In this document: in pieces, positions 20,222 to 39,893 of the stretch
Numbering within the stretch: position 1 is the first letter of the stretch
How the letters are laid out: each line of letters begins with the position of its first letter
From: an uncultured Methylomirabilota bacterium
GTDB taxonomy: Bacteria > Methylomirabilota > Methylomirabilia > Methylomirabilales > 2-02-FULL-66-22
Direction: 5' to 3'
DNA length: 64,000 nucleotides
Assembly (NCBI GenBank): GCA_963705305.1
Contig: OY970067.1
Span: 2,016,001-2,080,000, forward strand
Program-made: the position numbers and the translations under genes
Notes under the pieces: model-generated
What the model saw: only the letters and a program-made list of their open reading frames with translations
The model's database searches: none
What the model was told of the DNA's origin: nothing

Positions 20222-20294
20222 CCTCGTGTGTCTCAAAGGTCTTGACGTGTCATCACCCCCGGCCGCGGATTTCACCGCCTTGACAGAGGTACGA

Positions 20295-20343: not shown

Positions 20344-20451
20344 GGCCGGGGTCCAGACGGCGTGTTGTGATCCCGGCTCCGCCCGGCTTGTTCCCTGCGG
20401 ATTAACACGGTACCATTCGAGCCGCCGTCGTAGAACGGGCATTGAGGAATC

Positions 20452-20832: not shown

Positions 20833-20960
20833 GGCTTCCCATCACCACCGAAGTTTCATCCTGGTGGGAGAAGATCGGGGAAGTCCTTCAGGGTCGATAG
20901 GGCCGGTGGAGGACCGTTGGCGGGGGTTGCACAGGGGGATAGACCGAGTCGGGAGGAGGC

Positions 20961-23596: not shown

Positions 23597-23654
23597 TTGA
23601 CAGCCGCCGGGCCTCTCGGATAGGGTGGGCGCCGTCTTGAAACCGGTTTCAAGA
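23597..23654 (+). promoter_or_regulatory. Promoter plus LacI-type operator
   Basis: TTGACA-N18-TAGGGT; perfect 20-bp palindrome TCTTGAAACCGGTTTCAAGA at 23635-23654. Confidence 0.85.
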
Positions 23655-23677: not shown

Positions 23678-24745
23678 GTGGCCGGACGCCGCACCGACAA
23701 GAGACACACCCCCACCATCGGCGACGTGGCCCGTCGGGCCCGTGTCTCGCGCGCGACCGTCTCGCGCGTCCTCAATGACTACCCCCATGTCAGGCCGCGC
23801 GTCCGGGCGGCGGTCCTGCGGGCGGTGGGGGCGCTGGCGTACCGCCCGGATCAGGTGGCCCGCAGTCTGGCCCGGCGGGAAACCCGGACCCTGGGGCTGG
23901 TGGTGGCGGACATCGCCAACCCGTTCTATGGGGAGACCGCCCGGGCGATCGTGGAGGCGGCGCGCGAGCAGGCGTACAACGTGATCCTGTGCATCACCGA
24001 GAACCGGCCCGCCCTCCAGTCGGCGTACGTGGAGGTCCTGCGGCAGCGGCGTGTGGACGGGATCATCTTCGGGTCGGTCTTCCTGAATGACCCGGTCGTG
24101 GACGGGCTCATCGACACGGGATTCCCCTGCATCATGTACAACCGGCGGCTCCGGTCCGGACGCGGCAACTACATCGTCCTCGATAACGTGCGGGCCAGCT
24201 ACGACCTGACCAGGCATATCCTGGGGCTGGGCCACCGGCGGATCGGGTATATGCGGGGGCTGTCCCAGGTGTCCACCACGCTGGAGCGGCTCCGGGGGTA
24301 CCGGAGGGCCTTGCGGGATGCGGGGATCTCCGCGGAGGCGAGCCTGATCCGCCCGGGGGCCTTCCAGATGGAGGCGACGGCGAGGGCGGCGCTAGATCTC
24401 CTGAAAGATCCCGCGCGTCCGACCGCGATCCTCGCGGCCAACGACGTCATGGCCCTCGGGGTGATTCACGCGGCCCGGGAGCTGGGGCTGCGGGTTCCGG
24501 AAGATCTGGCGGTGGCGGGGATCGACGACATCGAGATGGCGGGCCACCATGCCGTCCAGCTGACCACGGTGGCCCAGCAGAAGACGGAGATGGGGCGGCG
24601 GGCGGCTGAGGGCGTCCTGGCAATCATCCGGGACCCGCAGCGGTTCATCCGCGAGCCCATCCAGCAGGTCCTGCGTCCCGCCCTGGTGATCCGCCGCACC
24701 TGCGGAGCGCTGATGGCCCGGGAGGCCGCGGCGGGGATCGGCTGA
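23678..24745 (+). CDS. LacI family transcriptional regulator
   Basis: TIGDVARRARVSRATVSRVLN HTH, LGHRRI, VPEDLAVAGIDD. Confidence 0.95.
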   Translation: MAGRRTDKRHTPTIGDVARRARVSRATVSRVLNDYPHVRPRVRAAVLRAVGALAYRPDQVARSLARRETRTLGLVVADIANPFYGETARAIVEAAREQAYNVILCITENRPALQSAYVEVLRQRRVDGIIFGSVFLNDPVVDGLIDTGFPCIMYNRRLRSGRGNYIVLDNVRASYDLTRHILGLGHRRIGYMRGLSQVSTTLERLRGYRRALRDAGISAEASLIRPGAFQMEATARAALDLLKDPARPTAILAANDVMALGVIHAARELGLRVPEDLAVAGIDDIEMAGHHAVQLTTVAQQKTEMGRRAAEGVLAIIRDPQRFIREPIQQVLRPALVIRRTCGALMAREAAAGIG

Positions 24746-26512: not shown

Positions 26513-26564
26513 GCCGACACGGTACGACGCGCGAGGCAATGTCCGTCAGGCGACGGAGATAGCC

Positions 26565-28160: not shown

Positions 28161-28210
28161 CCACGGCAGGCTCGGACCGCGCCGACCTGTTCGCGCCGGA
28201 AGGAGGTTCG

Positions 28211-28669
28211 ATGGAGCGCTACTACGAGGACATGCAAGTGGGGGAGGAGTACCAGTCGCCCGCCCGCACCATCACGGAGGCGGACATCGTGAGCTTTGCG
28301 GCGCTCTCGGGCGATTGGAACGCGGTGCACTGCGACGAGGAGTACTGCAAGACCACCCCCTACAAAACCCGCATCGCCCACGGGCTCCTCGGCCTGGCCA
28401 TCGCCGAGGGACTGAAGTTCCGCCTGCCGGAGTTCGCCACCGCCCGCTACGTGGCGTCCTTGTACTGGAACTACAAATTCACCGGCCCGATCCTGATCGG
28501 AGACACCATCCGGGTGCGGGTCCGGGTCCAGAGCAAGCGGGAGACGAAGAGGCCGGATCGCGGCATCGTGGTGGAGTACGTCTCCATGCTCAACCAGCGG
28601 AACGAGGTGGTCCAGGAGGGAGAGCACGGGCTGATGGTGTGGCGGCGGGCGGCAGAAAATGCAAAATGA
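28211..28669 (+). CDS. MaoC-like (R)-enoyl-CoA hydratase/dehydratase
   Basis: RTITEADIVSFAALSGDWNAVH...RIAHG; AGGAGG RBS. Confidence 0.92.
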   Translation: MERYYEDMQVGEEYQSPARTITEADIVSFAALSGDWNAVHCDEEYCKTTPYKTRIAHGLLGLAIAEGLKFRLPEFATARYVASLYWNYKFTGPILIGDTIRVRVRVQSKRETKRPDRGIVVEYVSMLNQRNEVVQEGEHGLMVWRRAAENAK

Positions 28670-28736
28670 AGAACCGGCAATGCCGCACCGACAGCGCAAG
28701 ACCGGTTGATGGTTCGCCGAGATTGGGGAGGCGCAG

Positions 28737-29879
28737 ATGAATTTCAACCTGACGGATGAGCAGCGGATGCTGCGAGACACGGTGCGGGAGTTTGCGGAAA
28801 GAGAGATCAAGCCGCGGGCGGCGGAGATCGACCGCACCGACGAGTTTCCCCGGGACCTCTGGCGCCGCCTGGCCGAGCTGGGCATCCTGGGAATGACCCT
28901 GCCGCCCGAGTACGGCGGGGCCGGCATGGACACGGTCTGCTGGGCCGTCGCCCAGGAGGAGATGGCCCGGGCCTCGGTGGCGGTGGCCGACATTCAATTG
29001 CTGGCCAAGCTGATGCAGGACGTGATCCTGAAGAACGGCACGGATGCGCAGAAGCAAAAGTACCTGCCCGCCATGGCGCGGGGAGAGAAGATCTGCGTCA
29101 TCGCCCAGACGGAGCCCGGCGCGGGCTCGGACGTGGCGGCCGTCCAGACGACGGCCCGGCCGGACGGGGACGGATACGTCCTGAACGGCACCAAACGGTT
29201 CATCACCTGCGCCATGCTGGCCGACCTGGCCGTGGTCGTGGCCACGGTGGACAAGAGCAAGGGGCGGCAGGGGATCACGCTCTTTCTGGTGGAGAAGGGG
29301 ACGCCGGGGTTCGCGCCGGGCTCCAAGGAGCACCTCATGGGAGTCCGGGGCATGGCCACCGGAGAGGTGGTGCTCGATAACTGCCGGGTGAGCCGGGAAT
29401 GCCTGCTGGGAGGCGAGGGCGAAGGGTTCAAGCGCGCCATGATGTCTCTGGACACCGGCCGGATCGGGATCGGTTGCCAGGCGCTGGGGCTGGCGCAGGC
29501 CGCCATGGAGGAGGCCGTGCGCTACGCCAAGCAGCGCACGGCGTTCGGCGGTCCCATCGCCAACCTCCAAGGGATCCAATTCAAGCTGGCGGACATGTCG
29601 GCCGGCATCGAGGCCGCCCGCCTGCGCCTGCGGCACACGGCCTGGCTGAAGGATCAGGGGCGGACCATCATCCGGGAGGCGGCGGAGGCCAAGCTCCTGG
29701 CATCCGACCTGGCGGTCAAGGTGACCGGCGAGGCTCTCCAGATCCACGGGGCGTACGGCTACAGCACGGACTTCCCCGTCGAGCGCATGTACCGCGAGGC
29801 CAAGGTCTACCAGATCTGGGAGGGGACCAGCGAGATCCAGCGTGTGGTCATTGCGCGGCAGCTCCTGAAGGAATACTAG
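28737..29879 (+). CDS. Acyl-CoA dehydrogenase
   Basis: TEPGAGSD, LNGTKRFIT, GRIGI, R.AFG, QIHGAYGY, IWEGTSEIQR. Confidence 0.95.
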   Translation: MNFNLTDEQRMLRDTVREFAEREIKPRAAEIDRTDEFPRDLWRRLAELGILGMTLPPEYGGAGMDTVCWAVAQEEMARASVAVADIQLLAKLMQDVILKNGTDAQKQKYLPAMARGEKICVIAQTEPGAGSDVAAVQTTARPDGDGYVLNGTKRFITCAMLADLAVVVATVDKSKGRQGITLFLVEKGTPGFAPGSKEHLMGVRGMATGEVVLDNCRVSRECLLGGEGEGFKRAMMSLDTGRIGIGCQALGLAQAAMEEAVRYAKQRTAFGGPIANLQGIQFKLADMSAGIEAARLRLRHTAWLKDQGRTIIREAAEAKLLASDLAVKVTGEALQIHGAYGYSTDFPVERMYREAKVYQIWEGTSEIQRVVIARQLLKEY

Positions 29880-30125: not shown

Positions 30126-30180
30126 TTGACACGGCCGGGGGGCTGCTGATAGGGGTGAAAGCCGTTGAAAGCGTTTCCAA
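30126..30180 (+). promoter_or_regulatory. Promoter plus LacI-type operator
   Basis: TTGACA at 30126; TTGAAAGCGTTTCCAA at 30165-30180. Confidence 0.75.
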
Positions 30181-30204
30181 GTTCTTTCAACCCGAGGAGC
30201 GGCC

Positions 30205-31362
30205 GTGGCCGACCGGACCGCTGAAAACCGCCCGCCTACCATCGGCAACGTCGCTCGCAGGGCCGGGGTCTCTCCCGCCACCGTCTCCCGCGTGATCAAC
30301 GATCGCCCCAATGTCCGGCCCGCGGTGCGGGCCAAGGTTCAGCAGACCATGCGCCGCCTCGGCTACCGTCCGGATCAGGTGGCCCGGGGGCTGGTTCGCC
30401 GGGAGACCAGGACGCTCGGATTGATGACGCCCGATCTGCCCAACCCGTTCGGCGCGGAGACCGCCACGGCCATCCTGGAGACGGCGCGCGGTCACGGCTA
30501 CAGCGTCGTCCTCTGCAACATCGACAACCTGCCCCGCCTGCAGGAGGAATCGGTGGAGGTCCTGCTGCGACGCCGGGTGGACGGGATCCTGATCGGCAGC
30601 GCGTTCCTGGATGACCCGGTTGTGGAGAAGCTGCTAGACACCCGCGTCCCGTGCATGATGTACAGCCGGCGCCTGCGCTCCGGGCGCGGGAACTACGTCG
30701 TGCTGGACAACGTCAAGGCGGGGTACGACCTCACCCGGCACCTCCTCACCCTCGGCCACCGGCGGATCGGGTTCGTGGGGAGCCGCCCCGAGCTCTCCAC
30801 CGCCAGCGAGCGCCTCCAGGGGTACCGGCAGGCGCTGGCCGAGGCGGGGCTGCCGGCGGATCCGGAGCTGGTCCGGCCCTCGGCGACCAAGTCCGAGATC
30901 GCCTACCAGATGGCCGTGGACCTTCTCAAAGCGCCAGACCGGCCGACGGCCATTGTGGCGCGGACCGACCTGATCGCCCTGAGCGTCATGGAGGCGGCGG
31001 CGGATCTCGGGATGCGGGTCCCCGGCGATCTGGCCGTGGTGGGCGTGGACGATATCCGGATCGCGGCACACCGGCGCATCCAGCTCACCACGGTCTCGCA
31101 GCAGCGGGCCGAGATGGGCCAACTGGCGGTGAGCTGGCTGCTGGAGATCATCCGCGATCCGGATCGATTTGCGCGGACGCCCTTCCAGCATGTCCTGGCC
31201 CCGACCCTGATCGTTCGGGGGAGCTGCGGGGCGCTGCCCGGTTCTGTGTTGAACGCCGTCCCGAGCGGAGAGAAGCGGGAGCTCCTGTCCGCCCCGAACC
31301 TGATTGCTATGGCGGATGCCACGGGGGCAGGGGTTCCGGCGGGTCGTCACCCCCGGTCATAA
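30205..31362 (+). CDS. LacI family transcriptional regulator (paralog of 23678-24745)
   Basis: TIGNVARRAGVSPATVSRVIN; shares RRLRSGRGNY.VLDNV and YDLTRH blocks with the first LacI. Confidence 0.95.
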   Translation: MADRTAENRPPTIGNVARRAGVSPATVSRVINDRPNVRPAVRAKVQQTMRRLGYRPDQVARGLVRRETRTLGLMTPDLPNPFGAETATAILETARGHGYSVVLCNIDNLPRLQEESVEVLLRRRVDGILIGSAFLDDPVVEKLLDTRVPCMMYSRRLRSGRGNYVVLDNVKAGYDLTRHLLTLGHRRIGFVGSRPELSTASERLQGYRQALAEAGLPADPELVRPSATKSEIAYQMAVDLLKAPDRPTAIVARTDLIALSVMEAAADLGMRVPGDLAVVGVDDIRIAAHRRIQLTTVSQQRAEMGQLAVSWLLEIIRDPDRFARTPFQHVLAPTLIVRGSCGALPGSVLNAVPSGEKRELLSAPNLIAMADATGAGVPAGRHPRS

Positions 31363-31380
31363 CGAATGCAGGAGGAAGGT

Positions 31381-31923
31381 ATGGCGGGAGAAATGGAATC
31401 CGCAGTGACGGCCGCGAACCGCCTGGAGCGGCGATCGGCTCTCCGGATCGCTTTTGGTCTCTTCGACGGGCTCTGCGATGCCACATCCATCCTGATCCTC
31501 TGGGGGACCGTCGTGGTGGTCTTCCTCCAGATCATGGCGCGGTATGTCTTCAAGGTGCCGCTGGTGTGGACGGAGGAGGTGGCACGCTTTGCCTTCATAT
31601 GGCTGGCGTTCGTGGGCGTCGCCGTCACGGAGCGCCAGAACGCACACTTTCGGGTCACCTTCTTGGTGGAGAAGGCCCCGCCTCGGCTGCGCTTCGCCAT
31701 CTGGATTCTCGTCGAGCTGTGCATTCTGGTCACCCTGGTCCTCTTCTTCTTTGAAGCCATCAAGTACACGAAGCTGGGGGCGCAGAACGTCTCGGCCGTC
31801 ATGCAGCTGCACCTGAGCTACATCTATGCGTCCCTGCCGGTCTTCGTGGTGCTCGCCCTCATCAACCGGCTGCGAATGGATATCAAAAAGCTGCGGAGCG
31901 GAACCGACAATCCGTTTGCGTAA
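31381..31923 (+). CDS. dctQ: TRAP transporter small permease
   Basis: QIMARYVF..PLVWTEEVARFAFIW; four TM segments. Confidence 0.92.
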   Translation: MAGEMESAVTAANRLERRSALRIAFGLFDGLCDATSILILWGTVVVVFLQIMARYVFKVPLVWTEEVARFAFIWLAFVGVAVTERQNAHFRVTFLVEKAPPRLRFAIWILVELCILVTLVLFFFEAIKYTKLGAQNVSAVMQLHLSYIYASLPVFVVLALINRLRMDIKKLRSGTDNPFA

Positions 31924-31941
31924 GGCTCAGGAGGGGCCGAC

Positions 31942-33234
31942 GTGGAGACCGCCACTGTCGTTTTGGTCCTGTTCTTCGGCACGATGCTGATGGGCATGCC
32001 GCTCGCCTATTCGATGCTGTTTACCGGCTTCGTGTCGCTCCATTTCCTGCACCCGGAAGTTCCCATCAACATCGTTCCCCAGCGGGTGTTCGGGGGGGTG
32101 GATAATTTCATTCTGCTGTGCATCCCGTTCTTCATCCTGGCGGGCGATCTGATGTCCCTGACCGCCTTGTTCGACCAGCTCATCGACGTGGCCAACGCCA
32201 TCATTGGCCGGGTGAAGGGGGCCCTCTCGCACATCGTGATCGTGGTCGCCATGTTCTTCGCGGGGATCACGGGGGCGGCGGTCGCCGACACCTCGGCGGT
32301 GGGGAGCCTGTTAATTCCAGCCATGGTGAAGCAGGGCTACCGCAAGCAGTACGCCACGGCGGTCGTGGTGGTGGCGTCCACCATCGGGGTGATCATTCCG
32401 CCCAGCAACCTGATGATCGTGGCGGCGCTGGCCACCACGACCTCGGTGGCGGCCCTGCTCCTGGGCGGGATCATTCCGGGGGTCCTGGCGGCGATGGCCA
32501 TGCTGGTCTGGAGCATCTACTACGGGATCACCCGCGGCTTCCCCGCCTCGCCCCCGATGACCTGGATGGATCGCGTCCGGGTCTTTGCGCGCAGCTTCCC
32601 GGCCCTGGGGATCCCGGTGATCCTGATGGGCGGCATCCTGGCCGGGATCGTCACGCCGACGGAGGCCGCCGACGTGTCGATCTTCTATGCCCTGATCGTA
32701 GGGCCAATCCTTCTCCGCCGCTTTCCCACCATGAAGCAATTCTATGAGAGCTCACTCACCGTGGTCAGCCGCGTCTCCGCCGTGATGGCCTGCGTGGGCG
32801 CCTCCCTGGTCCTGGGATGGATCTTCGCCATCTCCGAGGTGCCGGATGCGGTGGGGCATTTTATCACCTCCATCACCACGAATTCCGTTCTGATCACTGC
32901 CGGCATGCTGGTGACCTACCTGATCGTCGGCTGCTTCATGGATCCTATCCCGGCCATCCTGATCTTCTCGCCCATCTTTCAACCGCTGGCGGAATCCATC
33001 GGCATCTCCCCGGTGCACTTCGCCGTGGTCATGGTGTTCGGGCTGACGATCGGACTGGCCACGCCCCCAGTCGGATCGTGCCTGTATGTCGGTGCGGCCA
33101 TCTCGGGCCTGCGGATCGATGAGTTCACCATGGATATGATCCCGTACATCCTGGCGATGACCGTGATCCTCTTTGTCATCGCGTATGCGCCGGGCTTCGT
33201 GATGTGGATTCCCAATCTGGCGTTGGGGAAGTGA
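31942..33234 (+). CDS. dctM: TRAP transporter large permease
   Basis: IPFFILAG, IIPPS, TPTEA, TPPVG motifs. Confidence 0.95.
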   Translation: METATVVLVLFFGTMLMGMPLAYSMLFTGFVSLHFLHPEVPINIVPQRVFGGVDNFILLCIPFFILAGDLMSLTALFDQLIDVANAIIGRVKGALSHIVIVVAMFFAGITGAAVADTSAVGSLLIPAMVKQGYRKQYATAVVVVASTIGVIIPPSNLMIVAALATTTSVAALLLGGIIPGVLAAMAMLVWSIYYGITRGFPASPPMTWMDRVRVFARSFPALGIPVILMGGILAGIVTPTEAADVSIFYALIVGPILLRRFPTMKQFYESSLTVVSRVSAVMACVGASLVLGWIFAISEVPDAVGHFITSITTNSVLITAGMLVTYLIVGCFMDPIPAILIFSPIFQPLAESIGISPVHFAVVMVFGLTIGLATPPVGSCLYVGAAISGLRIDEFTMDMIPYILAMTVILFVIAYAPGFVMWIPNLALGK

Positions 33235-33332
33235 GCGGGGGCCTCGCCCGGATGGAAGGCGGGGAACCGATGGGTGGCTGAGCAGGCCTGGACGGCTGCT
33301 CGTGGGCAACTGAACACTGGAAGGAGGAGGCG

Positions 33333-34331
33333 ATGGGTGCGAAGCGTGGAGCCTGGTGGGCGCTGGTGATCGCCATTGTCATGTCGTTCGTGCTGGCAGG
33401 GATTGCCCAGGCTGGCGAGGTGGTCCTGAAACTCGGGACCAGCCAGCCCCCTAAGGGCGGATACCTCGGCGACACTCCGAAAGTCTTCGCCGACGCCATC
33501 GAGCAGGCGACCAAGGGGGCAGTGAAGGTCAAAGTATTCTATTCCGGGTCGCTGAGCGCCAACGAGCGGGAGCTCTTGGAGATGGCCCAAAGCGGGGCCA
33601 CCGATTTCGGGATCGGGGCCACGACCTACGTGCTGGGCTGGGCGCCCGCCTTCAAGGTCTTCGACCTCCCGTACCTTTTCCAGGGGGTCGAGCACTTCAA
33701 GAGGGTCGTGCAGGGGCCGGTGGGCGAGACGCTGGCCAAGCAGGAGGAGGTGCACGGGGTGGTGCAGCTTGCCTACATCCTGCCGGGAGTCCGGAGCATC
33801 TTCAACAATGTCCGGCCCATCAACAAGCTGGAGGACGCCAAGGGCCTGAAGATCCGGAGCATGCAGAGCCCCGTGTACCTTGACATGTTCAAGGCCATGG
33901 GAATGCTGCCGACGGCGATGCCGGCCTCGGAGCTGTACACCTCCCTCCAGACGGGTGTGGTGGACGCCGGCGAGAACGACCCGGCCAGCGTGGTCAGCTG
34001 GGGGTGGATTGACGTGATCAAGTACTATTCTCTCGACGAGCACTCCATCTCGTGCAACGTGCTGATCATGAATAAGAAGCGGTTCGACAGCTTCTCGCCG
34101 GAGATTCAGAAGGCCATCCTCCAGGCGGGGAAGACAGCCGAAAACTATCAGTTGGACTACATCCAAAAAGCGACCGCGGAAAGCCTGGAGAAGATCAGGG
34201 CCAAGGGAGTCAAGGTCAACACCATCCCCGACAAGAAGCCCTTCCAGGATGCCGTCAAGCACATCATCGCCCAGTACGAGCCGGAGATCGGCCACAACCT
34301 GGTCCAGATGGTGCGGGACGCCGCGAAGTAG
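33333..34331 (+). CDS. dctP: TRAP substrate-binding protein
   Basis: Signal peptide, DLPYLF, KGLKIR, ELYTSLQTGVVDAGEN. Confidence 0.95.
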   Translation: MGAKRGAWWALVIAIVMSFVLAGIAQAGEVVLKLGTSQPPKGGYLGDTPKVFADAIEQATKGAVKVKVFYSGSLSANERELLEMAQSGATDFGIGATTYVLGWAPAFKVFDLPYLFQGVEHFKRVVQGPVGETLAKQEEVHGVVQLAYILPGVRSIFNNVRPINKLEDAKGLKIRSMQSPVYLDMFKAMGMLPTAMPASELYTSLQTGVVDAGENDPASVVSWGWIDVIKYYSLDEHSISCNVLIMNKKRFDSFSPEIQKAILQAGKTAENYQLDYIQKATAESLEKIRAKGVKVNTIPDKKPFQDAVKHIIAQYEPEIGHNLVQMVRDAAK

Positions 34332-34430
34332 CGGCCGAGTGTCTTGGCGCCCGGGGGTGGGCCGGCCGCGCCGGCCCCACCCCCGGGCGCTCTGCGGAGG
34401 GGCGCCTGCGGCCCCTGGTGTTGCATCGCC

Positions 34431-36809
34431 ATGATCACATCAGCGGTTGCGCTCGACCGGACGACCCGCCTGCGGGGCCGGCTCTTGTCGCACGAGCCGT
34501 CGATCTGCCACGAGCGGGTGGCCATCGTCACCCAGTGCTACGACGAGCTGGGACAGTCCCTCCCGCCCGTCCGCCTGCGGGCCAGGGCCCTGGCCGCCGC
34601 CCTGGATGGGATGACCATCTTCATCGGGCCCGATGAGCTGATCGTCGGGAACCAGGCCTCCCGGCCGCGCGCGGCCCCGGTCTTCCCCGAATACTCCTGG
34701 GAATGGATCCTGGACGAGCTGGGCACCCTCCCCCGGCGGACAGCCGACCGGTTTGCCGTTTCCCCCGAGACGGCCGAGGCCTTGCGATCCCTGCTTCCGC
34801 GTTGGCGGGGCCGGGCCCTTCGCGATCGGGCGGCGGCGGCCATGCCGGAGGAGGTCCTGCGGGCGCAGGAGGGCCTGGTCTTTCTTCTGACCAGCATGGG
34901 CTGCGGCGTGGGGCACCTGGCCCCCGACTACTCCCGCGTGCTTGCCCGCGGACTGGCGGGACTGGCGGACGCGGCCCAATCCATGCTGAACACCCTGGAC
35001 CTTACCGAGCCGGCCTCCCTGAGGCGGCGGGATTTTTGCCTGGCCGCGGTGGAGGTCTGCCAGGCGGCGATCCGCTTTGCCCACCGCTACGCAGAGCTGG
35101 CCCTTCGCCTGGCGGGAAGCGAGGCGAATGCGGCCAGGCGGGCGGAGCTCCAGGAGATCGCGCGCGTCTGCCGGAAGGTGCCGGCCCAGCCGGCCGCGAC
35201 GTTTCACGAGGCCCTCCAATCCTTCTGGTTCGTCCACCTCATCATCCAGATCGAGGCCAACGGCCACTCCATCTCGCCGGGCCGGTTCGATCAGTACATG
35301 GCCCCCTCCTATGCGGCCGACCTCCAGACGGGGCGGCTGGACCGTGAACGGGCTCTGGAGCTGCTGGACTGCCTCTGGATCAAGTTCAACGAGATCATGA
35401 AGCTGCGGGACCGGACCGCCTCCATCGGGTTCGGGGGATACCCCCTGTTTCAGAACCTCATCGTCGGGGGCCAGACGGCGGACGGGCGGGACGCCACCAA
35501 CGACCTGTCCTTCCTTTGCCTGGAGGCCACCCGCCGGACCCGCCTGCCCCAGCCCTCGCTCTCGGTGCGGGTGCACGCCGGAAGCCCCCCGCCCTTCCTG
35601 AAGGCGGCCGCCGCGCTGGCCCGCGAGGGGCTGGGCATGCCCGCCTTCTTCAACGACGAGATCATCGTCCCGCTGCTCCAGCGGATGGGCGCCGGGTTGG
35701 AGGAGGCCCGCGGGTACGCCGAGGTGGGCTGCGTCGAGCCCCAGGTGCCCGGCCGCACGAACGGGTACTATCCGGCCGGCTTCCTCAATCTGGGGAAGGT
35801 GGTGAGCCTGGCCCTGCACAACGGCACCGATCCGGTCAGCGGCCGGCAGCTTGGCCCGCGCGACGCCGCGTTCGGGGGGTTTGCCCGCTACGAGGACGTG
35901 CGCGCGGCCCTGGACCGGCAGCTGGAGCATTTCATCCGGCTGCTGGTGGCCGCGGATAACGTCTTGGACGCCGCCCACGGGGCCCTGGCGCCCAATCCCT
36001 TCGTCTCGCTTGTGGTGGACGACTGCCTGACGCGCGGCCTGTGCTACGAAGAGGGCGGGGCCGTCCACAACTACACGGCGCCCAACAGCGTCGGTCTGGC
36101 CAACGCCGCCGACGCCCTGATGGCGGTCAAGCGGCTAGTATTCCAGGAGCGAAAAGTGGGGATGCCGGAGCTGCTGCAGGCACTGGCGGAGGATTTCGCC
36201 GGTCGGGAGGCCCTGCGCCAGATGCTGCTCCACAAGGCCCCCAAGTACGGCAACGACGAGGACGAAGTGGACGCCATCGCCCGGGAACTGGCCAGCCAGA
36301 TCCTTCGAGGATTCAAGCGATTCCGCAACGTCCGCGGGGGTCGGTTCGAGCCGGGCCTGCAGAGCATCTCGGCGCATGCCCTGTTCCGGGACGCCGTGGG
36401 CGCCACGCCGGACGGGCGCACGGCGCGGATGCTCTTGGCCGACGGGGGCATCTCCCCGGCGCAGGGGCGGGATCGCCGCGGCCCGACCGCCGTGGTCAAG
36501 TCCGCCGCCAAGCTGGACCATCTGGAGTCCTCCAACGGGACGCTGCTCAATATCAAATTGAGCCCGCAGTCGGTCGCCGGGGAGACCGGGCTGGAAAACC
36601 TGGCGGCCCTCATCCGGACCTACTTCCAGCTGGGGGGGCAACACGTCCAGTTCAACATCGTCAGCTCCGACGTCTTGCGCGAGGCGCAGGCGCATCCCGA
36701 AGAGCATCGGGATCTGGTCGTCCGGGTGGCCGGCTTCAGCGTGCTGTTCACCACCATCGACCGGGTGCTCCAAGAGGACATCATCGAGCGGACCGAGCAT
36801 GTTCTCTGA
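34431..36809 (+). CDS. Glycyl radical enzyme, diol/glycerol-dehydratase-like, substrate unknown
   Basis: ELIVGNQ, GVGH, NGHSIS.GRFDQY, FGGYPLFQNLIVGGQ, Cys loop GCVEP, Gly loop HVQFN...RVAGFS. Confidence 0.93.
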   Translation: MITSAVALDRTTRLRGRLLSHEPSICHERVAIVTQCYDELGQSLPPVRLRARALAAALDGMTIFIGPDELIVGNQASRPRAAPVFPEYSWEWILDELGTLPRRTADRFAVSPETAEALRSLLPRWRGRALRDRAAAAMPEEVLRAQEGLVFLLTSMGCGVGHLAPDYSRVLARGLAGLADAAQSMLNTLDLTEPASLRRRDFCLAAVEVCQAAIRFAHRYAELALRLAGSEANAARRAELQEIARVCRKVPAQPAATFHEALQSFWFVHLIIQIEANGHSISPGRFDQYMAPSYAADLQTGRLDRERALELLDCLWIKFNEIMKLRDRTASIGFGGYPLFQNLIVGGQTADGRDATNDLSFLCLEATRRTRLPQPSLSVRVHAGSPPPFLKAAAALAREGLGMPAFFNDEIIVPLLQRMGAGLEEARGYAEVGCVEPQVPGRTNGYYPAGFLNLGKVVSLALHNGTDPVSGRQLGPRDAAFGGFARYEDVRAALDRQLEHFIRLLVAADNVLDAAHGALAPNPFVSLVVDDCLTRGLCYEEGGAVHNYTAPNSVGLANAADALMAVKRLVFQERKVGMPELLQALAEDFAGREALRQMLLHKAPKYGNDEDEVDAIARELASQILRGFKRFRNVRGGRFEPGLQSISAHALFRDAVGATPDGRTARMLLADGGISPAQGRDRRGPTAVVKSAAKLDHLESSNGTLLNIKLSPQSVAGETGLENLAALIRTYFQLGGQHVQFNIVSSDVLREAQAHPEEHRDLVVRVAGFSVLFTTIDRVLQEDIIERTEHVL

Positions 36810-37749
36810 AGCCCGGCAATCCGATCCCGCACCCGCCCAGACGCCCGACGCCGGCATCGTCTTCGACATCCAGCGCTTCTCCGTCCACGACGGCCCGGGC
36901 ATCCGCACGCTCGTCTTCCTCAAGGGATGCCCCCTGTCGTGCGAGTGGTGTGCCAATCCGGAGGGCCGACAGCCCGGACCGGAGATCCTCTTCGATCCCG
37001 CCAGGTGCGTGGGCTGCCGGGTCTGCGAGGGGGTCTGCACCAACGGCGCGGCCCTGGTGGCGGAGGGGGGGACGCCAGTGTTCGAGCGGGGACGCTGCCT
37101 GGCCTGCGGCGCCTGCGTGGAGGTCTGTCCCTCGGGGGCCCGCGCCCTGGCGGGCCGGTCCATGTCCGTCCAGACCGTGCTGGCGGAGGTGCTGAAGGAC
37201 GAGCCCTTCTACCGAAACTCCGGCGGCGGCCTCACGTTGGGGGGCGGCGAGCCGCTGGCGCAGCCCGATTTCGCGGCGGGGATCCTCCGGGCGTCCCGCG
37301 ATCGCGCGATCCACACGGCCGTGGAGACCTCTGGGCATGTTCCCTGGCCCCGCCTCCGGCAGGCGCTCCCCTGGACGGACCTGTTCCTCTATGATCTCAA
37401 GCATCCGGATCCGGATGCGCATCGGGCGCACACCGGCGGCGATGTCGGCCTCGTGATGGGAAACCTGGATCGCCTGCTCGAGGCCGGGGCCCGGGTCTGG
37501 CCGCGGGTGGCCGTGATTCCGGGGTTCAACGACGATCCGGCGGTCTTCGGCGAACTGGTCCGGCAGGTCGCCGGGTTGGGACTGGGCGAGATCCACCTGC
37601 TGCCGTACCATCGGCTGGGACAGGCCAAGTACCGGCTCCTGGGCCGGGAGGAAGTGTTCCGCGGGCGGGAGGCGATCCGCGAGGGGCGGCTGGAGGAGCT
37701 GGCCGCGCTGGCTCGTGCGGCGGGACTGGCTGTGACGGTGGGGGGATAG
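36799..37749 (+). CDS. Glycyl-radical activating enzyme (radical SAM with ferredoxin insert)
   Basis: IQRFSVHDGPGIRTLVFLKGCPLSCEWCANPE, two CxxCxxCxxxC, GGEP. Confidence 0.95.
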   Translation: MFSEARQSDPAPAQTPDAGIVFDIQRFSVHDGPGIRTLVFLKGCPLSCEWCANPEGRQPGPEILFDPARCVGCRVCEGVCTNGAALVAEGGTPVFERGRCLACGACVEVCPSGARALAGRSMSVQTVLAEVLKDEPFYRNSGGGLTLGGGEPLAQPDFAAGILRASRDRAIHTAVETSGHVPWPRLRQALPWTDLFLYDLKHPDPDAHRAHTGGDVGLVMGNLDRLLEAGARVWPRVAVIPGFNDDPAVFGELVRQVAGLGLGEIHLLPYHRLGQAKYRLLGREEVFRGREAIREGRLEELAALARAAGLAVTVGG

Positions 37750-37870
37750 CGCCGCCCCTGCGGTCGCGGCGCCGGGACGGATCGTCGAGATCGTTGCCTT
37801 CGAACGCGAGGAAGCGTAGCCTAGCATCATCGCCCGCGCTAGCCGCGGGGGACGGAACTGCGGAGGGAGC

Positions 37871-38629
37871 ATGGGCTGGACAGGCAAGGTGGCACTGGTC
37901 ACGGGTGGGGGCTCCGGGATCGGACGCTCCACGTGCGAGCTGTTCGCGGCCGGCGGCGGGACCGTGGTGGCGGCGGATCTGAACGAGCGGGCGGCCGCCG
38001 CGATAGTCGAATCGATCCGGCAGCGGGGCGGCCGCGCCGAGGCCGTGGGGACCGATGTGACCCGCTGGGAGGACGTGCAGACGGTCGTGGAGAGGGCGCG
38101 GAGGATCTCGGGCCGGCTGGACGTCGTCATCAACTGTGCCGGGATCCTGCGGATTCACACGATCGAGGAGACCTCCGAAGCGGAATGGCAGCAGGTGCTC
38201 GAGATCAACCTCACCGGCGCGTTTCTGGTCACCAAGGCCGCGATGCGGGTGATGCGAGAGCAGGGGGGCGGCTCCATCGTCCACATCGCCTCGCGCATGG
38301 CCCTGCGGGTGAAAGAGGGCCATGCGGCGTATGCCGCTGCCAAGGCCGGCGTGATGCAGCTCACGGAGATGGCCGCCCTGGAGGGGGCCCGTGACGGCAT
38401 CCGGGTCAACTGCGTCTGCCCCGGGTTCGTGGACACTCCCATGGTGCGGAACTCCGGCCCCGCCGACGACGTGGAGGCCCAGTTCGCCGCCTGGGCCAAG
38501 ATCTGCCCGTTGGGCCGCGCCGCGGTGCCCGGGGACATCGCCCGGGCCATGCTGTTCCTGGCCTCGGACGATGCCGCGTTCATTACCGGCGTGGCCCTGC
38601 CCGTGGACGGTGGGCGGACGATTCTCTGA
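37871..38629 (+). CDS. SDR oxidoreductase
   Basis: TGGGSGIG, NCAG, YAAAK, VDGG. Confidence 0.93.
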   Translation: MGWTGKVALVTGGGSGIGRSTCELFAAGGGTVVAADLNERAAAAIVESIRQRGGRAEAVGTDVTRWEDVQTVVERARRISGRLDVVINCAGILRIHTIEETSEAEWQQVLEINLTGAFLVTKAAMRVMREQGGGSIVHIASRMALRVKEGHAAYAAAKAGVMQLTEMAALEGARDGIRVNCVCPGFVDTPMVRNSGPADDVEAQFAAWAKICPLGRAAVPGDIARAMLFLASDDAAFITGVALPVDGGRTIL

Positions 38630-38680
38630 CCGACAGGTGCCGTACCAGGCGTTCTGCGCTTCCGCAAGGAGGGACCTTAC

Positions 38681-39583
38681 ATGCCGAACACACCGCTGGG
38701 CTTCCTCGGATTGGGCGTCATGGGCGGGCCCATGGCCCGGAATCTCCTCAAGGCCGGCTATCCGGTGACCGGCTATGATCCCGACGCCAACCGGATGCAG
38801 CTTTTCACGCGGGCGGGCGGGAAGGCCGTGGCCTCCGTCGAGGCGGTCGGGCGGGCAGGAGACGTCGTGTTCCTCTCCCTCCCCACCGGCGACGTGGTGC
38901 GGCGGACAGTCACCGGCGAGGGGGGGCTGCTCTCGGCCATGCCGTCGGGCGCGCTCATCGCGGACCTCAGCACCACGGAGCCGAAGGTGGCCCAGGACTG
39001 CGCAACAGCCTGCGCGGATCGCGGCATCACGTTCCTGGACGCGCCGGTCAGCGGCGGGGAACAGGGAGCCATCGACGCCAGCCTGTCCATCATGGTGGGC
39101 GGCGAGGCGGCGGGGTTTGCCCGCTGCCAGCCCCTGCTCGCCTGCGTGGGCAAGTCAGTCGTCCACATGGGGGGCAGCGGACTGGGCCAGGCGACCAAGC
39201 TCCTCAACAACATGATCGTGGCGGCCGGATTTGCCGCGGTCTGCGAGGCGTGGGGGTTGGCGGCCAAGGTTGGCCTGGACCCGGCCACGCTGCATCAGGC
39301 CATCAAGGGCGGCTGGGCCGGCTCGCGTGTCATGGAGGAGACGGTCCCCCGTCTCCTGGCCCGGAATTTCGTCCCCGGCGGGACCGTGGACATCATGACC
39401 AAGGACGTGGGATATGCCCTGAACATGGCGCGGTCCCTGGATGTGCCCGTGCCGGTAACGGCCCTGGCCCACGAGCTTTTCCGCATGGTGAAGGCGCAGG
39501 GGCAGGGACCCAAGGCCCAGCCCATCCTAATCAGCCTGTGGGAGCAGTGGACGGGGGTGCAGGTCGGAGGTCACCAGCCCTGA
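38681..39583 (+). CDS. Beta-hydroxyacid dehydrogenase (tartronate-semialdehyde reductase/3-hydroxyisobutyrate DH family)
   Basis: GFLGLGVMG.PMA.NL, LDAPVSGG, G.ATKLLNN, KDV. Confidence 0.93.
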   Translation: MPNTPLGFLGLGVMGGPMARNLLKAGYPVTGYDPDANRMQLFTRAGGKAVASVEAVGRAGDVVFLSLPTGDVVRRTVTGEGGLLSAMPSGALIADLSTTEPKVAQDCATACADRGITFLDAPVSGGEQGAIDASLSIMVGGEAAGFARCQPLLACVGKSVVHMGGSGLGQATKLLNNMIVAAGFAAVCEAWGLAAKVGLDPATLHQAIKGGWAGSRVMEETVPRLLARNFVPGGTVDIMTKDVGYALNMARSLDVPVPVTALAHELFRMVKAQGQGPKAQPILISLWEQWTGVQVGGHQP

Positions 39584-39611
39584 TCTCGGCTTTCGACCCG
39601 AAGGTGAGAGC

Positions 39612-39893
39612 ATGGAGCAGACGCGACGTCAAGAGATCAGAAGCCTGTTATGCCAGCGCCTCTGGACCCTGGACGAGCTGGCGGCGCGGTACGTCGTGGC
39701 CAAGCGGATCATCATAAACGATCTGGAGCATATCGCCCGCTCCGTGGCGCCGCGCCAGAGACTCGAGATCCTGCCGCCGGTGTGCCGCCAGTGCGGTTTC
39801 CGGTTCAAGGATCGGTCGCGCTTTTCGGATCCATCCCGCTGTCCGCAGTGCAAGAACGAACACCTCGGCTCGCAACAGTTCCGCATCGTGTGA
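39612..39893 (+). CDS. HTH plus Zn-ribbon transcription regulator (COG3357-like)
   Basis: TRRQEI...DLEHIARS...PPVCRQCGFRF...PSRCPQCK. Confidence 0.85.
   Translation: MEQTRRQEIRSLLCQRLWTLDELAARYVVAKRIIINDLEHIARSVAPRQRLEILPPVCRQCGFRFKDRSRFSDPSRCPQCKNEHLGSQQFRIV

Follow-up and report, generated by a model that had tools for sequence, protein, structure and literature searches.

A TRAP-linked glycyl radical enzyme from an uncharacterised clade of putative eliminases in a Methylomirabilota genome

The locus described here raises the question of which reaction is catalysed by a glycyl radical enzyme (GRE) that carries motifs of B12-independent glycerol and 1,2-propanediol dehydratases (GD and PD) but is encoded beside a TRAP transporter. 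It lies in a 64,000-nucleotide stretch of DNA from an uncultured Methylomirabilota bacterium, referred to as the window. With moderate confidence overall, we read it as encoding a variant from an uncharacterised clade of GRE eliminases, which would act on a TRAP-imported, carboxylate-bearing hydroxy acid and feed a downstream CoA-dependent route.

Gene organisation and shared operators

A preliminary description had outlined a co-oriented unit running from an operator through LacI, dctQMP, GRE, activase and SDR to a beta-hydroxyacid dehydrogenase (beta-HAD). This layout holds: the eight genes from LacI to beta-HAD are all intact on one strand (ORF list, Pfam, NCBIfam), and the operon around the oxygen-sensitive GRE is genuine. 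The module was nevertheless drawn too small. A PF0610-like gene adds one member at the 3' end, extending the unit from the promoter and operator to 30126-39893. Upstream, genes for a CoA-transferase, a MaoC hydratase and an acyl-CoA dehydrogenase (ACAD; 26415-29879 together) share the strand of the GRE unit and, with an EtfBA operon elsewhere in this genome, belong to the same module.

23597-23602, + strand: promoter-like TTGACA ahead of LacI-1, read directly
23637-23652, + strand: perfect 16-bp LacI-type palindrome TTGAAACCGGTTTCAA ahead of LacI-1, read directly and by pattern search
23678-24745, + strand: LacI-family regulator LacI-1, paralogue of LacI-2 (Pfam)
24776-26512, + strand: fumarate-reductase-type flavoprotein, TfrA-like (Pfam FAD_binding_2 and Succ_DH_flav_C; NCBIfam TfrA 325, below the cut-off of 718)
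26415-28160, + strand: family-I CoA-transferase, YdiF/Pct-like, start codon uncertain (Pfam; PDB 2ahu, YdiF, 394.5 bits)
28211-28663, + strand: MaoC-type (R)-specific enoyl-CoA hydratase/dehydratase, 150 aa (tblastn, 89% to the MaoC of relative locus L001, itself a Pfam MaoC_dehydratas match)
28737-29879, + strand: short-chain Bcd/AcrC-type acyl-CoA dehydrogenase/enoyl-CoA reductase, ACAD (best NCBIfam match AcrC, 471 versus 640; PDB 5ol2_C, 377 bits)
30126-30131, + strand: promoter-like TTGACA, the -35 hexamer ahead of LacI-2, where the preliminary description began the unit
30165-30180, + strand: imperfect LacI-type palindrome TTGAAAGCGTTTCCAA ahead of LacI-2
30205-31362, + strand: LacI-family regulator LacI-2 (Pfam LacI and Peripla_BP_3)
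31366-31923, + strand: DctQ, TRAP membrane subunit (Pfam)
31942-33234, + strand: DctM, TRAP membrane subunit (Pfam; TIGR00786, 346 versus 268)
33333-34331, + strand: DctP, TRAP solute-binding protein (Pfam; TIGR00787, 202 versus 175)
34431-36809, + strand: GRE, 792 aa from the probable ATG start at 34431 within the ORF 34344-36809 (Pfam, NCBIfam, HMMER alignment, tree)
36799-37749, + strand: GRE activase, radical SAM (TIGR02494, 329 versus 174)
37871-38629, + strand: SDR oxidoreductase (Pfam, NCBIfam)
38681-39583, + strand: beta-HAD of the tartronate-semialdehyde-reductase/3-hydroxyisobutyrate-DH family (Pfam, NCBIfam)
39612-39893, + strand: PF0610-like small protein, 93 aa (Pfam)

In relatives, the CoA-transferase, MaoC and ACAD genes stand directly upstream of the GRE unit in unchanged order. 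Locus L181 shows the one-strand arrangement LacI-CoAT-MaoC-ACAD-SDR-(Gfo/Idh/MocA)-DctQMP-GRE-AE-HAD-PF0610, which L001, L083 and L084 keep over the parts their contigs hold. Across these four loci the CoA-transferase is 77-83% identical, in the same order and strand; ACAD is about 86% identical in relatives. Of the close-clade loci, all five that extend 6.5 kb or more upstream contain ACAD, five of the six with at least 5 kb upstream contain the SDR, and nine of the twelve with at least 2.2 kb downstream contain beta-HAD. The PF0610-like protein, encoded by the last gene of the operon in relatives, is 73-82% identical in L001, L006, L083, L088, L095, L098, L148 and L181. The CoA branch is shown for the close clade only. 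The TfrA-like flavoprotein is not a conserved part, since tblastn over 160 loci found it only in this window.

The LacI operator is common to the CoA-transferase/MaoC/ACAD set, the GRE unit and the distant EtfBA operon of this genome. Pattern search returned the LacI-type palindrome twice in the window (0.02 expected). The perfect operator has only two distinct sites in the 5.6-Mb genome, 5' of LacI-1 and 5' of EtfB-EtfA-Fe-S/CCG-TRAP2, and a reversed control pattern gave 0 matches. LacI-1 and LacI-2 share 60% identity (205/341, BLASTP), and the LacI genes of L084 and L181 are preceded by the same operator.

A separate clade with an altered pocket

The radical machinery is intact. The GRE (Pfam PFL-like 711 bits, Gly_radical 116 bits) retains Gly768, the Cys434-Val-Glu436 loop and His162, and its neighbour is a three-cluster-type activase whose sequence has CPLSCEWC plus a pair of ferredoxin-like Cys motifs. 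The GD/PD-type blocks GVGH, NGHS, FGGYP.FQNLIVGGQ and GCVEPQ.PG were all found, as first described. Among solved structures, GD and PD match best (736, 731 and 721 bits), with 43-45% identity and TM 0.96 to 9rcp, 5i2g and 1r8w. Identity to the sulfonate-GRE structures 5ymr, 7kq3 and 6lon is 31-32%. The only NCBIfam subfamily model passed is TIGR01774 (788 versus 678), and the protein scores below every equivalog cut-off, including HpfG (580 versus 1000), HpsG (544 versus 1000) and HypD (635 versus 1100).

In a FastTree phylogeny of 177 GREs, the enzyme falls in its own 90-row clade (support 92; 99 with a 5-row sister). The GD/PD-type clade, recognised by GWHD (35-37 rows, support 97-99), lies apart, and PflD-type and HypD-type enzymes are far away. 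These results support a position outside every characterised GRE family tested, in keeping with the preliminary description. The clade is predicted to comprise uncharacterised CXE-type 1,2-eliminases, beside rather than inside the B12-independent GD/PD group.

Comparison with C. butyricum DhaB1 (1R8W/1R9D; 44% identity, TM 0.96) defines what was kept and what was changed. Equivalents of Cys433, Glu435, His164, Ser282, Phe333 and Gly763 are present, and in both systems a separate radical-SAM activase adjoins the GRE. In contrast, the enzyme carries W445Y, H446Y, D447P, A449G, Y339F, Y640Q, S642I and N645H, and it is partnered by a TRAP importer of the carboxylate type and by enzymes that depend on CoA. 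The partner of DhaB1 is 1,3-propanediol dehydrogenase. The PDs, represented by Roseburia inulinivorans (5I2A/5I2G) and a GRM3 enzyme (9RCO-9RCR), are similarly close at 43-45% identity. Unlike them, the GRE has lost the GWHD and LYP motifs, is linked to a TRAP importer and occurs in a genome without microcompartment genes; the shell family PF00936 is absent throughout the 98.9%-complete assembly, and the preliminary description had likewise noted no such genes.

The replacements D447->P and Y640->Q, as first described, are genuine because the HMMER alignment to 1r8w sets GYYP against GWHD and GLQSISAH against GLYPSSIN. Both GD residues, which we take to have active-site roles, are conserved in 35/35 GWHD rows. 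The claim of a re-tooled pocket stands in part: differences from GD/PD at residues conserved clade-wide are supported by the alignment, but Pro at the D447 position occurs in only 57/90 members and is not conserved. As the alignment reads, the shared trait there is the lack of a conserved Asp, combined with invariant Gln644, His649 and Tyr447. With Gly450 and Gln678 (each 90/90), these residues form the clade signature. Gln644 (90/90), His649 (90/90) and Tyr447 (89/90) face Tyr, Asn and His, respectively, in 35/35 GWHD rows. Altogether 20 positions are fixed differently between the two clades, among them those of H446, A449, Y640, S642 and N645. Within the clade, His162, Cys434, Phe334 and Gly768 are kept in 90/90 members and Glu436 in 89/90.

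Further changes may concern pocket size. The Tyr157-Tyr159 stretch of GD is shortened to Leu/Met-gap-Gly/Ser, and N160 is replaced by Cys/Ser. Together with the many replacements by smaller residues, this hints at a substrate above C3. Since D447 and Y640 are conserved in GD and PD alike, they may hold the reacting diol rather than a third carbon; without them, the leaving group or reaction type could be a different one. At the Y339 and S642 positions the clade remains hydrophobic (Phe340 90/90, Ile646 87/90), as do GWHD rows with Phe and Val. Presumably this disfavours a carboxylate at the site of the glycerol C3-OH, and thus glycerate in the GD orientation.

The pocket argument, built on sequence alignment and residue numbers from papers, extends to other eliminases. 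HypD (6VXC/6VXE) is a CXE eliminase that binds its carboxylate through uncharged polar ligands from strand beta-8 and from the segment following the Cys loop. The GRE signature falls in the same two segments, and HypD T645 and Y450 map beside positions 644 and 447. Differences are an overall identity of 35% and His279 and Phe334 where HypD has Asp278 and Ser334. By the numbering in a review, the sulfonate is bound by R672 in HpsG, R676 in IseG and R678 in IslA; this Arg lies at catalytic Cys +210, the spacing at which this GRE has Gln644.

The probable imported substrate and alternative reactions

The preliminary description had argued for an anionic substrate. This proposal is supported by sequence evidence, because DctP keeps an Arg/Arg/Asn triad and the same TRAP follows the GRE across phyla. 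Arg154, Arg175 and Asn215 are invariant (alignment A2) and correspond to the carboxylate triad of TRAP binding proteins (PMC11668362). DctP orthologues at GRE loci are 53-78% identical. An orthologous TRAP lies within 12 kb of the GRE in 17/25 clade loci from several phyla, counting loci whose flank reaches 3 kb or more on at least one side; two more of the 25 have a different TRAP. In L002, the GRE is 65% identical and is flanked by neither a TRAP nor an activase gene. Among solved binders, the closest have glucuronate, galacturonate, KDG, erythronate or pantoate as ligand, and DctP scores 158-175 bits against such sugar-acid and hydroxy-acid binders, compared with 107 bits for 8t9t, which binds isethionate, and 95 bits for 24gg/24gh. 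The substrate is most likely a small hydroxy or sugar acid. As the GRE travels with a sugar-acid-type importer across phyla, the operon probably opens an undescribed anaerobic breakdown route of a hydroxy acid.

In other phyla, the neighbours are enzyme types with hydroxy or sugar acids as substrates. They include LarA-like/nickel-pincer isomerases (6/25 loci), Gfo/Idh/MocA proteins (6/25), aldo-keto reductase, IolO-like epimerases and, directly upstream of the GRE in low-GC loci, PDH-like E1/E2. For LarA homologues, glycerate racemisation and 2,3-dihydroxybutyrate epimerisation are already published. Accessory enzymes vary from one subclade to another, so what follows the GRE reaction is not conserved.

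Such neighbours bear on the alternative that survives best, although we consider it improbable: a carboxylate-acting GRE that, rather than being a dehydratase, isomerises its substrate or eliminates a different leaving group. It might, for example, open a C-O ring or ether bond of an anhydro or glycosylated sugar acid, much as YbiW/PflD do with anhydro-sugar phosphates, or break the C-N bond of an amino-hydroxy acid. Sugar-type isomerases and oxidoreductases often adjoin the GRE, PDH-like E1/E2 would go well with a methyl ketone or 2-oxo acid as the product, and the CXE motif is common to eliminases and isomerases. By spacing, position 644, the N160 replacement and the D447 loss sit at the leaving-group site of IslA/HpsG. 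However, the His164 equivalent never varies in the clade, which is expected when a leaving OH is protonated; PflD-type and HypD-type enzymes are distant; and no ammonia- or glycoside-handling gene is conserved beside the GRE.

A sulfonate such as DHPS, an early suggestion, is an unlikely substrate. The corresponding reading, a dehydratase of DHPS or another C3-sulfonate or a C-S lyase, TRAP-fed as at HpfG/HpsG/IslA loci, is one that we find very hard to sustain. Known IslA/IseG and HpsG loci do couple a GRE with TRAP (literature), and the HpfG/HpsG/IslA-IseG systems likewise combine GRE, activase and TRAP in an operon that handles an anionic hydroxy compound of two or three carbons. Sulfolactaldehyde reductase belongs to the beta-HAD family (172 versus 348), and ACAD weakly matches 3-sulfinopropanoyl-CoA desulfinase (310 versus 600). 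Against this stand HpfG and HpsG scores of about half the cut-offs, Gln in place of the sulfonate-binding Arg, the sugar-acid character of DctP, and the finding of no sulfite-handling gene among annotated window genes (12-49 kb). We also know of no role for MaoC or a Bcd-type ACAD in sulfonate routes.

Least credible is an isofunctional glycerol/1,2-propanediol dehydratase with second-shell drift and TRAP and CoA genes as mere neighbours: the closest solved matches, the retained catalytic residues and the GWHD-like Phe340 and Ile646 fit it, but the separate clade with its differently fixed positions, the cross-phylum TRAP linkage, the BMC-free genome and an operon in which Pfam and NCBIfam revealed no 1,3-propanediol/propanol dehydrogenase or CoA-acylating aldehyde dehydrogenase oppose it.

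A proposed route from hydroxy acid to acyl-CoA

In the favoured reading, a hydroxy-acid eliminase, the dedicated DctPQM would import an acid of the 2-hydroxy, vicinal-diol or sugar type. Catalysis would begin with abstraction of H from the carbinol carbon by the thiyl radical; Glu436 would deprotonate the OH of that carbon, and the adjacent OH (or other leaving group) would be lost to give an oxo-acid, with His162 as the equivalent of the GD proton donor. Gln644, Tyr447 and His649, with the small residues replacing W445, D447, A449 and N160, may hold the anionic part of the substrate.

Action of the SDR and beta-HAD on the GRE product is plausible; in this lineage, either or both would reduce the oxo-acid to a 3-hydroxy acid. 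The YdiF-type transferase would then place it onto CoA, MaoC would dehydrate the 3-hydroxyacyl-CoA, and the resulting enoyl-CoA would be reduced (or, in reverse, formed) by the Bcd-type dehydrogenase, partnered by EtfBA and the Fe-S/CCG oxidoreductase, whose distant operon has the same operator.

Glycerate is the simplest substrate fit. Its full mapping, through malonate semialdehyde, 3-hydroxypropionate, 3-HP-CoA and acryloyl-CoA to propionyl-CoA, is held only tentatively and leaves the KduI/IolB-like, IolO-like and Gfo/Idh/MocA neighbours unexplained. Comparably tentative candidates are a C4 tetronate or 4-deoxy-tetronate, which would yield butyryl-CoA, and a C5-C6 sugar-acid derivative.

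The CoA branch resembles the acrylate pathway of Clostridium propionicum (propionate CoA-transferase, AcrABC) and Bcd-EtfAB in combining a CoA-transferase, a Bcd/AcrC-type dehydrogenase and EtfBA. Among NCBIfam models, AcrC, AcrA and AcrB rank first or nearly so, with all scores below the equivalog cut-offs. The acrylate pathway uses a 2-hydroxyacyl-CoA dehydratase, whereas a MaoC hydratase is found here and the ETF is coupled to an Fe-S/CCG protein. Through their TTGAAA-N4-TTTCAA-type operators, LacI-1 and LacI-2 would repress these units until the acid or its metabolite appears.

Gene organization around the glycyl radical enzyme

From 30126 to 39893, the window carries a single co-oriented string of genes (ORFs, Pfam, NCBIfam) that includes the glycyl radical enzyme (GRE). 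The preliminary description had proposed a TRAP-fed GRE module at 30126-39583. Its gene string is present and co-oriented, and the module stands as far as it was drawn; its extent does not, the operon and the regulon being larger.

Features of the GRE unit and of genes upstream of it (window coordinates; entries from LacI-2 onwards are co-oriented and were called with Pfam/NCBIfam, the last with Pfam)
23678-24745: regulator LacI-1, upstream of the GRE unit
24776-26512: fumarate-reductase-type flavoprotein (TfrA-like), upstream
28211-28663: MaoC hydratase, 150 aa, upstream
30126-30131: TTGACA hexamer, read by eye
30165-30180: imperfect palindrome TTGAAAGCGTTTCCAA, from a pattern search
30205-31362: regulator LacI-2
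31366-34331: TRAP subunits DctQ, DctM and DctP
34431-36809: GRE, 792 aa; ORF opens at 34344, start ATG 34431
36799-37749: GRE activase
37871-38629: SDR
38681-39583: beta-hydroxyacid dehydrogenase (beta-HAD)
39612-39893: PF0610-like protein, 93 aa

The probable GRE start is ATG 34431, where the alignment of homologues and solved structures begins. The GC content of the window is high (0.56-0.72), and genes in high-GC loci were called with a codon-position GC filter. Promoters were identified by eye; a consensus promoter/terminator scan returned none beyond chance (1 found versus 1.2 expected; 4 versus 5.6).

The activase adjoins the GRE in 27 of 34 clade loci. Its translation contains the CX3CX2C motif of a cognate radical-SAM activase, as CPLSCEWC, together with two ferredoxin-like cysteine motifs, and it scores 329 against a cut-off of 174 for TIGR02494. 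Among solved structures, the beta-HAD comes closest to 2-hydroxymethylglutarate dehydrogenase (210 bits) and tartronate semialdehyde reductase (208 bits). The reported absence of microcompartment genes extends to the whole genome of the window, where no BMC shell gene was found.

Clade membership and active-site signature

The GRE combines a PFL-like barrel with a C-terminal glycine-radical domain (PF02901, 711 bits; PF01228, 116 bits). Its RVAGFS motif contains the RVxG sequence of the GRE superfamily, with Gly768 in 90/90 clade members, and its Cys loop, GCVEPQ, contains Cys-X-Glu (Cys434, 90/90; Glu436, 89/90). A June 2026 review treats the CXE motif as a mark of GRE 1,2-eliminases and isomerases. 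The window GRE is of the CXE type and, judged by sequence, is a predicted 1,2-eliminase or isomerase.

HMMER alignment gave 736 bits to the C. butyricum glycerol dehydratase (GD; 1r8w), 731 to 9rco, a GRM3 propanediol dehydratase (PD; PMC12756279), and 721 to 5i2a from Roseburia. In this alignment, GWHD of GD (D447) pairs with GYYP and GLYPSSIN (Y640) with GLQSISAH, and the D447-to-Pro and Y640-to-Gln substitutions proposed from the sequence are both right. Equivalents of GD Cys433, Glu435, His164, His281-Ser282, Phe333 and Gly763 are retained. Further changes are W445Y, H446Y, A449G, Y339F, S642I and N645H, and the Tyr157-Tyr159 stretch ahead of GD His164 is shortened. The contacts of D447, Y640, Y339 and S642 in GD are assumed here as background. 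His162 and Glu436 take the places of GD His164 and Glu435, to which the June 2026 review assigns the roles of proton donor and base, and the GWHD and Tyr640 of GD/PD are replaced by GYYP and Gln644.

The only NCBIfam model passed is that of the broad subfamily TIGR01774 (788 versus 678). No NCBIfam equivalog cut-off is reached: scores are about half the cut-off for PflD-type (640/1109), HypD (635/1100), HpfG (580/1000), CutC (556/1050) and HpsG (544/1000) enzymes, followed by indoleacetate decarboxylase (412/1100), HPA decarboxylase (321/1150) and PFL (140/994). The AlphaFold model (pLDDT 90.6, pTM 0.92) aligns with PD/GD structures at TM 0.96 and 43-45% identity, all other solved GREs reaching at most 40%; the pocket was compared via the alignment.

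Phylogenetic placement drew on 120 database homologues and on the GREs of 80 genome and 80 metagenome loci, of which 128 locus GREs were full length and were reduced to 66 representatives below 75% identity. In a FastTree of 177 sequences, the window GRE falls in a clade of 90 (support 92; 99 when joined by a sister group of five). The GD/PD-type clade with the GWHD motif stands apart (35-37 sequences, support 97-99), and the window GRE lies outside it. FastTree support carries less weight than that of a careful search, and some of the long branches received flags; the split of the two large clades is independent of these branches. One HpfG-like sequence (939/1000) groups with the GWHD side. 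Among 55 representatives scanned outside the family, the HypD model and the PflD-type model are each passed by a single sequence, both distant, these two types being the only references labelled in the tree set.

Residues of the window GRE in its own clade and in the GD/PD-type clade (GD numbering of the C. butyricum enzyme in brackets)
His162: 90/90; GD/PD-type His, 35/35
Phe334: 90/90; GD/PD-type Phe, 35/35
Phe340: 90/90; GD/PD-type Phe, 35/35
Cys434: 90/90; GD/PD-type Cys, 35/35
Glu436: 89/90; GD/PD-type Glu, 35/35
Gly768: 90/90; GD/PD-type Gly, 35/35
Tyr447 (H446): 89/90; GD/PD-type His, 35/35
Gly450: 90/90; GD/PD-type Ala, 35/35
Gln644 (Y640): 90/90; GD/PD-type Tyr, 35/35
His649 (N645): 90/90; GD/PD-type Asn, 35/35
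Gln678: 90/90; GD/PD-type Ser, 33/35

Altogether, 20 positions are fixed differently between the two clades. At the D447 position, the 90 members carry Pro (57), Ser (13), Thr (11) or Asn (5), among others; Pro is thus present in the window GRE but fails as a family trait, and what lasts is the loss of the conserved Asp.

By the residue numbers of the June 2026 review, the sulfonate-binding Arg of HpsG, IseG and IslA lies at the catalytic Cys + 210. Gln644 is exactly 210 residues from the catalytic Cys, equal to that spacing, and would correspond to the second Arg of the Arg-Gln-Arg site of IslA/IseG/HpsG, the one residue of that site placed by the spacing. HypD holds the substrate carboxylate via uncharged Ser334, Thr645 and Tyr450, with Arg156 nearby (PMC7077986); in the alignment, these four residues map to window positions 334, 646/647, 451 and 158, beside signature residues. 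From this spacing and mapping, we infer that Gln644, Tyr447 and their neighbours may hold an anionic group.

Transporter linkage, regulon and relatives

DctP, DctQ and DctM were all found by Pfam/NCBIfam, together with the Arg/Arg/Asn triad of a carboxylate TRAP. Arg154, Arg175 and Asn215 of DctP are invariant in 9/9 aligned sequences and were equated, by a numbering offset of 2, with the carboxylate triad Arg152/Arg173/Asn213 of such binders (4P47 numbering; PMC11668362). The nearest solved relatives (30-34% identity) were crystallised with glucuronate, galacturonate, 2-keto-3-deoxygluconate, erythronate or pantoate according to PMC11668362, which gives the ligands of 4X8R, 4N8Y and 7BBR and describes the remaining nearest binders as 'pantoate or erythronate'. 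These relatives score 158-175 bits, compared with 107 for the isethionate binder and 95 for the DctP-family receptors 24gg/24gh.

Conservation of the gene neighbourhood, which the preliminary description had put forward as a check, is evident across phyla. After L163-L166 were dropped as repeats of L006, L001, L181 and L183, 34 distinct clade loci were counted. Of these, 25 have 3 kb or more of flank on one side, and in 17 of the 25 an orthologous TRAP lies within 12 kb of the GRE; at L148 and L018 the TRAP is a different one. None was seen at L006 or L081 (no upstream flank), at L090 or L093 (short flanks), at L008 or at L002; in the last, a LarA-like gene and a GntR regulator occur and neither TRAP nor activase adjoins the GRE. 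Identity to the window DctP is 70-78% in the close clade, 59-64% in low-GC loci and 53-59% in spirochaete loci.

The wider operon is seen most completely at L181, where a single operator and a single LacI precede a one-strand block: LacI, CoA-transferase, MaoC, acyl-CoA dehydrogenase (ACAD), SDR, Gfo/Idh/MocA, DctQM, two DctP, GRE, activase, beta-HAD and a PF0610-like gene. This order is kept at L001, L083 and L084 over the stretch covered by their contigs, and also at L183, but with two TGA stops in the GRE. Within the close clade, the ACAD occurs in 5/5 loci that have 6.5 kb or more upstream, the SDR in 5/6 that have 5 kb or more upstream, and the beta-HAD in 9/12 that have 2.2 kb or more downstream. 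Ahead of its GRE unit, the window also encodes a YdiF-like CoA-transferase (394 bits to 2ahu) and a Bcd/AcrC-type ACAD (best PDB match 5ol2_C, 377 bits). The ACAD and its electron-transferring flavoprotein (ETF) would work like Bcd/Acr-Etf systems, but they score below the AcrABC equivalog cut-offs (AcrC, the best NCBIfam match of the ACAD, 471/640; AcrA 197/600; AcrB 123/475).

LacI-1 and LacI-2 are 60% identical, and the regions ahead of them have TTGACA, a TAGGG(T/G) element and the operator in common; in the window's genome, duplication of the regulator and promoter has divided the block. Across the 5.6-Mb genome, the perfect operator TTGAAACCGGTTTCAA was found at two places only (0 with the reversed control pattern), ahead of LacI-1 and 1.85 Mb away. 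The distant site directly precedes EtfB, EtfA, a 671-aa Fe-S/CCG oxidoreductase (TfrB-like, 155/385) and a second TRAP. Because of this common operator before LacI-1 and EtfBA, the ACAD and its electron carrier appear to belong to the GRE regulon.

The distant operator, at position 9326 of L179 (G000:C1:3882000-3901000), is the third copy of the LacI operator. The TfrB-like protein of this locus and the TfrA-like flavoprotein of the window may be partners. The second transporter (DctPQM) is ruled out as an orthologue of the GRE-linked TRAPs, with 25-35% identity to any of them; its DctP scores 328 bits to 4nx1/4ovp, which we take to hold taluronate/mannuronate.

Beyond the close clade, the spirochaete locus L005 comprises activase, GRE, DctPQM, LacI, an aldo-keto reductase and a LarA-like gene, and L018 comprises LacI, GRE, activase, a TRAP and Gfo/Idh/MocA. 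Further genes appear at the low-GC loci L090-L093 and L112: a KduI/IolB-like cupin, an SDR, a nickel-pincer isomerase of group 22 (524 versus 400), two TIM-barrel epimerases, one of them IolO-like (270/300), and PDH-like E1alpha/E1beta/E2 genes directly ahead of the GRE. LarA-type or nickel-pincer isomerases are present in 6/25 loci, as is Gfo/Idh/MocA (6/25). LarA homologues are described as racemising or epimerising 2-hydroxy acids, including glycerate and 2,3-dihydroxybutyrates (PMC11770544). Gene content across phyla thus defines a conserved core of TRAP, GRE and activase, commonly accompanied by a LacI regulator; around this core, the accessory enzymes differ by lineage and belong to hydroxy-acid or sugar-acid chemistry.

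The GRE gene is rare within its phylum, with a match at E <= 1e-100 in 11 of 251 genomes, the window's own included. Four other genomes of the genus have a match at orthologue level (61-77% identity), one of these matches being broken. Among named relatives, MAGs labelled Candidatus Methylomirabilales/Methylomirabilia come first, followed by Deltaproteobacteria, Spirochaetota and Clostridia. Marispirochaeta aestuarii is a named and probably cultured carrier (GRE 52% identical), with a TRAP of the orthologous type beside its GRE.

Several loci show peculiarities of their own. The GRE of L183 (G016:C22, same genus; ~9688-11935, minus strand) aligns in two pieces with both TGA stops inside the match, its flanking operon genes look intact, and it may be a decaying gene or an assembly error. 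The two tandem DctP before the GRE at L083, L181 and L183 are 71-76% identical to the single DctP of the window. A Gfo/Idh/MocA oxidoreductase, absent from the window, is found at L181, L083, L148 and L183, with weaker matches at L085 and L087; kinship with apionate oxidoisomerase was dropped, that enzyme being KARI-like. On the metagenome contig L092, a KduI-DctP-DctM-nickel-pincer-isomerase block appears at 80-5483 and 15836-21239 with identical Pfam scores, which points to a repeat or to circular assembly of the contig. The window's genome (G000) holds six Lar_N (LarA-family) genes, none of them in the window. It also holds a second GRE paralogue (L180, G000:C1:2952000-2971000, 8402-13048), 44% identical and passing TIGR01774 only, with an activase and an Ldh_2-family dehydrogenase and adjoining a DDE transposase and a XhoI-type restriction-modification pair; it is a further orphan GRE and may have been acquired.

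Candidate chemistry and substrate

As an observation, the module of the preliminary description is confirmed, and its interpretation is supported in part only. The window GRE represents a distinct TRAP-linked family of predicted GRE eliminases, with an acid as putative substrate, inside a larger operon and regulon. It would work in the manner of GRE eliminases but by sequence belongs to none of the GD/PD, HpfG, HpsG/IslA, HypD, CutC and PflD/YbiW groups. In the June 2026 review, the substrates of GRE eliminases and isomerases are a neutral diol, amine, sulfonate, imino acid or sugar phosphate; its sections 5.6, 5.7 and 7 name no GRE acting on a hydroxy-carboxylate and note that whole GRE clades remain untested. 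Literature searches for a GRE with TRAP, sugar acid or hydroxy acid returned only sulfonate systems and unrelated genome papers, and subscription or recent reports are possible.

Found directly are an intact CXE-type GRE with its activase and a co-travelling carboxylate-type importer; in the close clade, the GRE is linked physically and by regulation to CoA-transferase, MaoC, Bcd-type dehydrogenase and ETF. An imported hydroxy acid would undergo radical 1,2-elimination to an oxo-acid. On the model of the GD radical steps in the June 2026 review, Cys434 would abstract H, Glu436 would serve as the deprotonating base and His162 would protonate the departing OH. In the window's lineage, the oxo-acid would be reduced by beta-HAD and/or SDR to a 3-hydroxy acid, which would then be activated, dehydrated and reduced as a CoA ester.

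With glycerate, the route would lead through malonate semialdehyde, 3-hydroxypropionate and acryloyl-CoA to propionyl-CoA and would employ every conserved enzyme; the AcrC, AcrA and AcrB models, best or near-best NCBIfam matches, are in line with this mapping. Against glycerate, the sub-pocket of Phe340 and Ile646 is hydrophobic, like that of GD/PD-type sequences (Phe and Val). We take PD to have Phe and Val at these two positions, which in GD presumably touch the glycerol C3-OH. The many replacements by smaller residues suggest a larger ligand, which also counts against glycerate, and the sugar-type neighbour genes are not accounted for by it. This makes C4 acids with butyryl-CoA as the end point, or a C5-C6 sugar-acid derivative, roughly equally likely. 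Both GD and PD conserve D447 and Y640, and the loss of these residues could reflect another leaving group or a reaction of the isomerase type. The ACAD/ETF step could belong to an enoyl-CoA electron sink or to beta-oxidation.

A sulfonate enzyme, whether dehydratase or C-S lyase, was rejected as unlikely on the HpfG (580/1000) and HpsG (544/1000) scores and on a DctP nearer to sugar-acid than to isethionate binders. A glycerol or propanediol dehydratase was likewise rejected, given the separate clade, the lost GWHD and Tyr640, and the TRAP linkage.

An acid substrate allows a joint reading that we offer tentatively, as possible but somewhat doubtful: the first GRE acting on a carboxylic polyol, in a kinase- and aldolase-free 'radical deoxygenation' of an imported sugar acid that feeds the CoA-transferase/MaoC/Bcd-ETF branch. 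Radical dehydration and reduction would remove hydroxyls from glycerate, a tetronate or a deoxy-aldonate. The CoA branch would end in propionate or butyrate, or act as an enoyl-CoA electron sink that the Fe-S/CCG oxidoreductase connects to the membrane. The family, with its own TRAP, extends across Methylomirabilota-like bacteria, Spirochaetes, Clostridia and Deltaproteobacteria of anoxic habitats. If true, anaerobes would use sugar acids by radical chemistry without kinase or aldolase, and in sediments, soils and guts a new route would turn acids of plant and microbial origin into short-chain fatty acids. With 90 sequences and an invariant Gln/His/Tyr signature, the family is well delimited and open to testing, and the operon brings its own binding protein, regulator and coupling dehydrogenase, usable for ligand screens.

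Two further gene groups lie upstream. An aldehyde product could be oxidised by a tungsten-type aldehyde:ferredoxin oxidoreductase (AFOR_N and AFOR_C; 15505-17241), which is encoded 6.4 kb upstream of LacI-1 and outside the operon. Immediately ahead of the first operator, 20452-23525 encodes a protein with a GBBH-like N-terminal domain followed by two zinc-type alcohol dehydrogenases.
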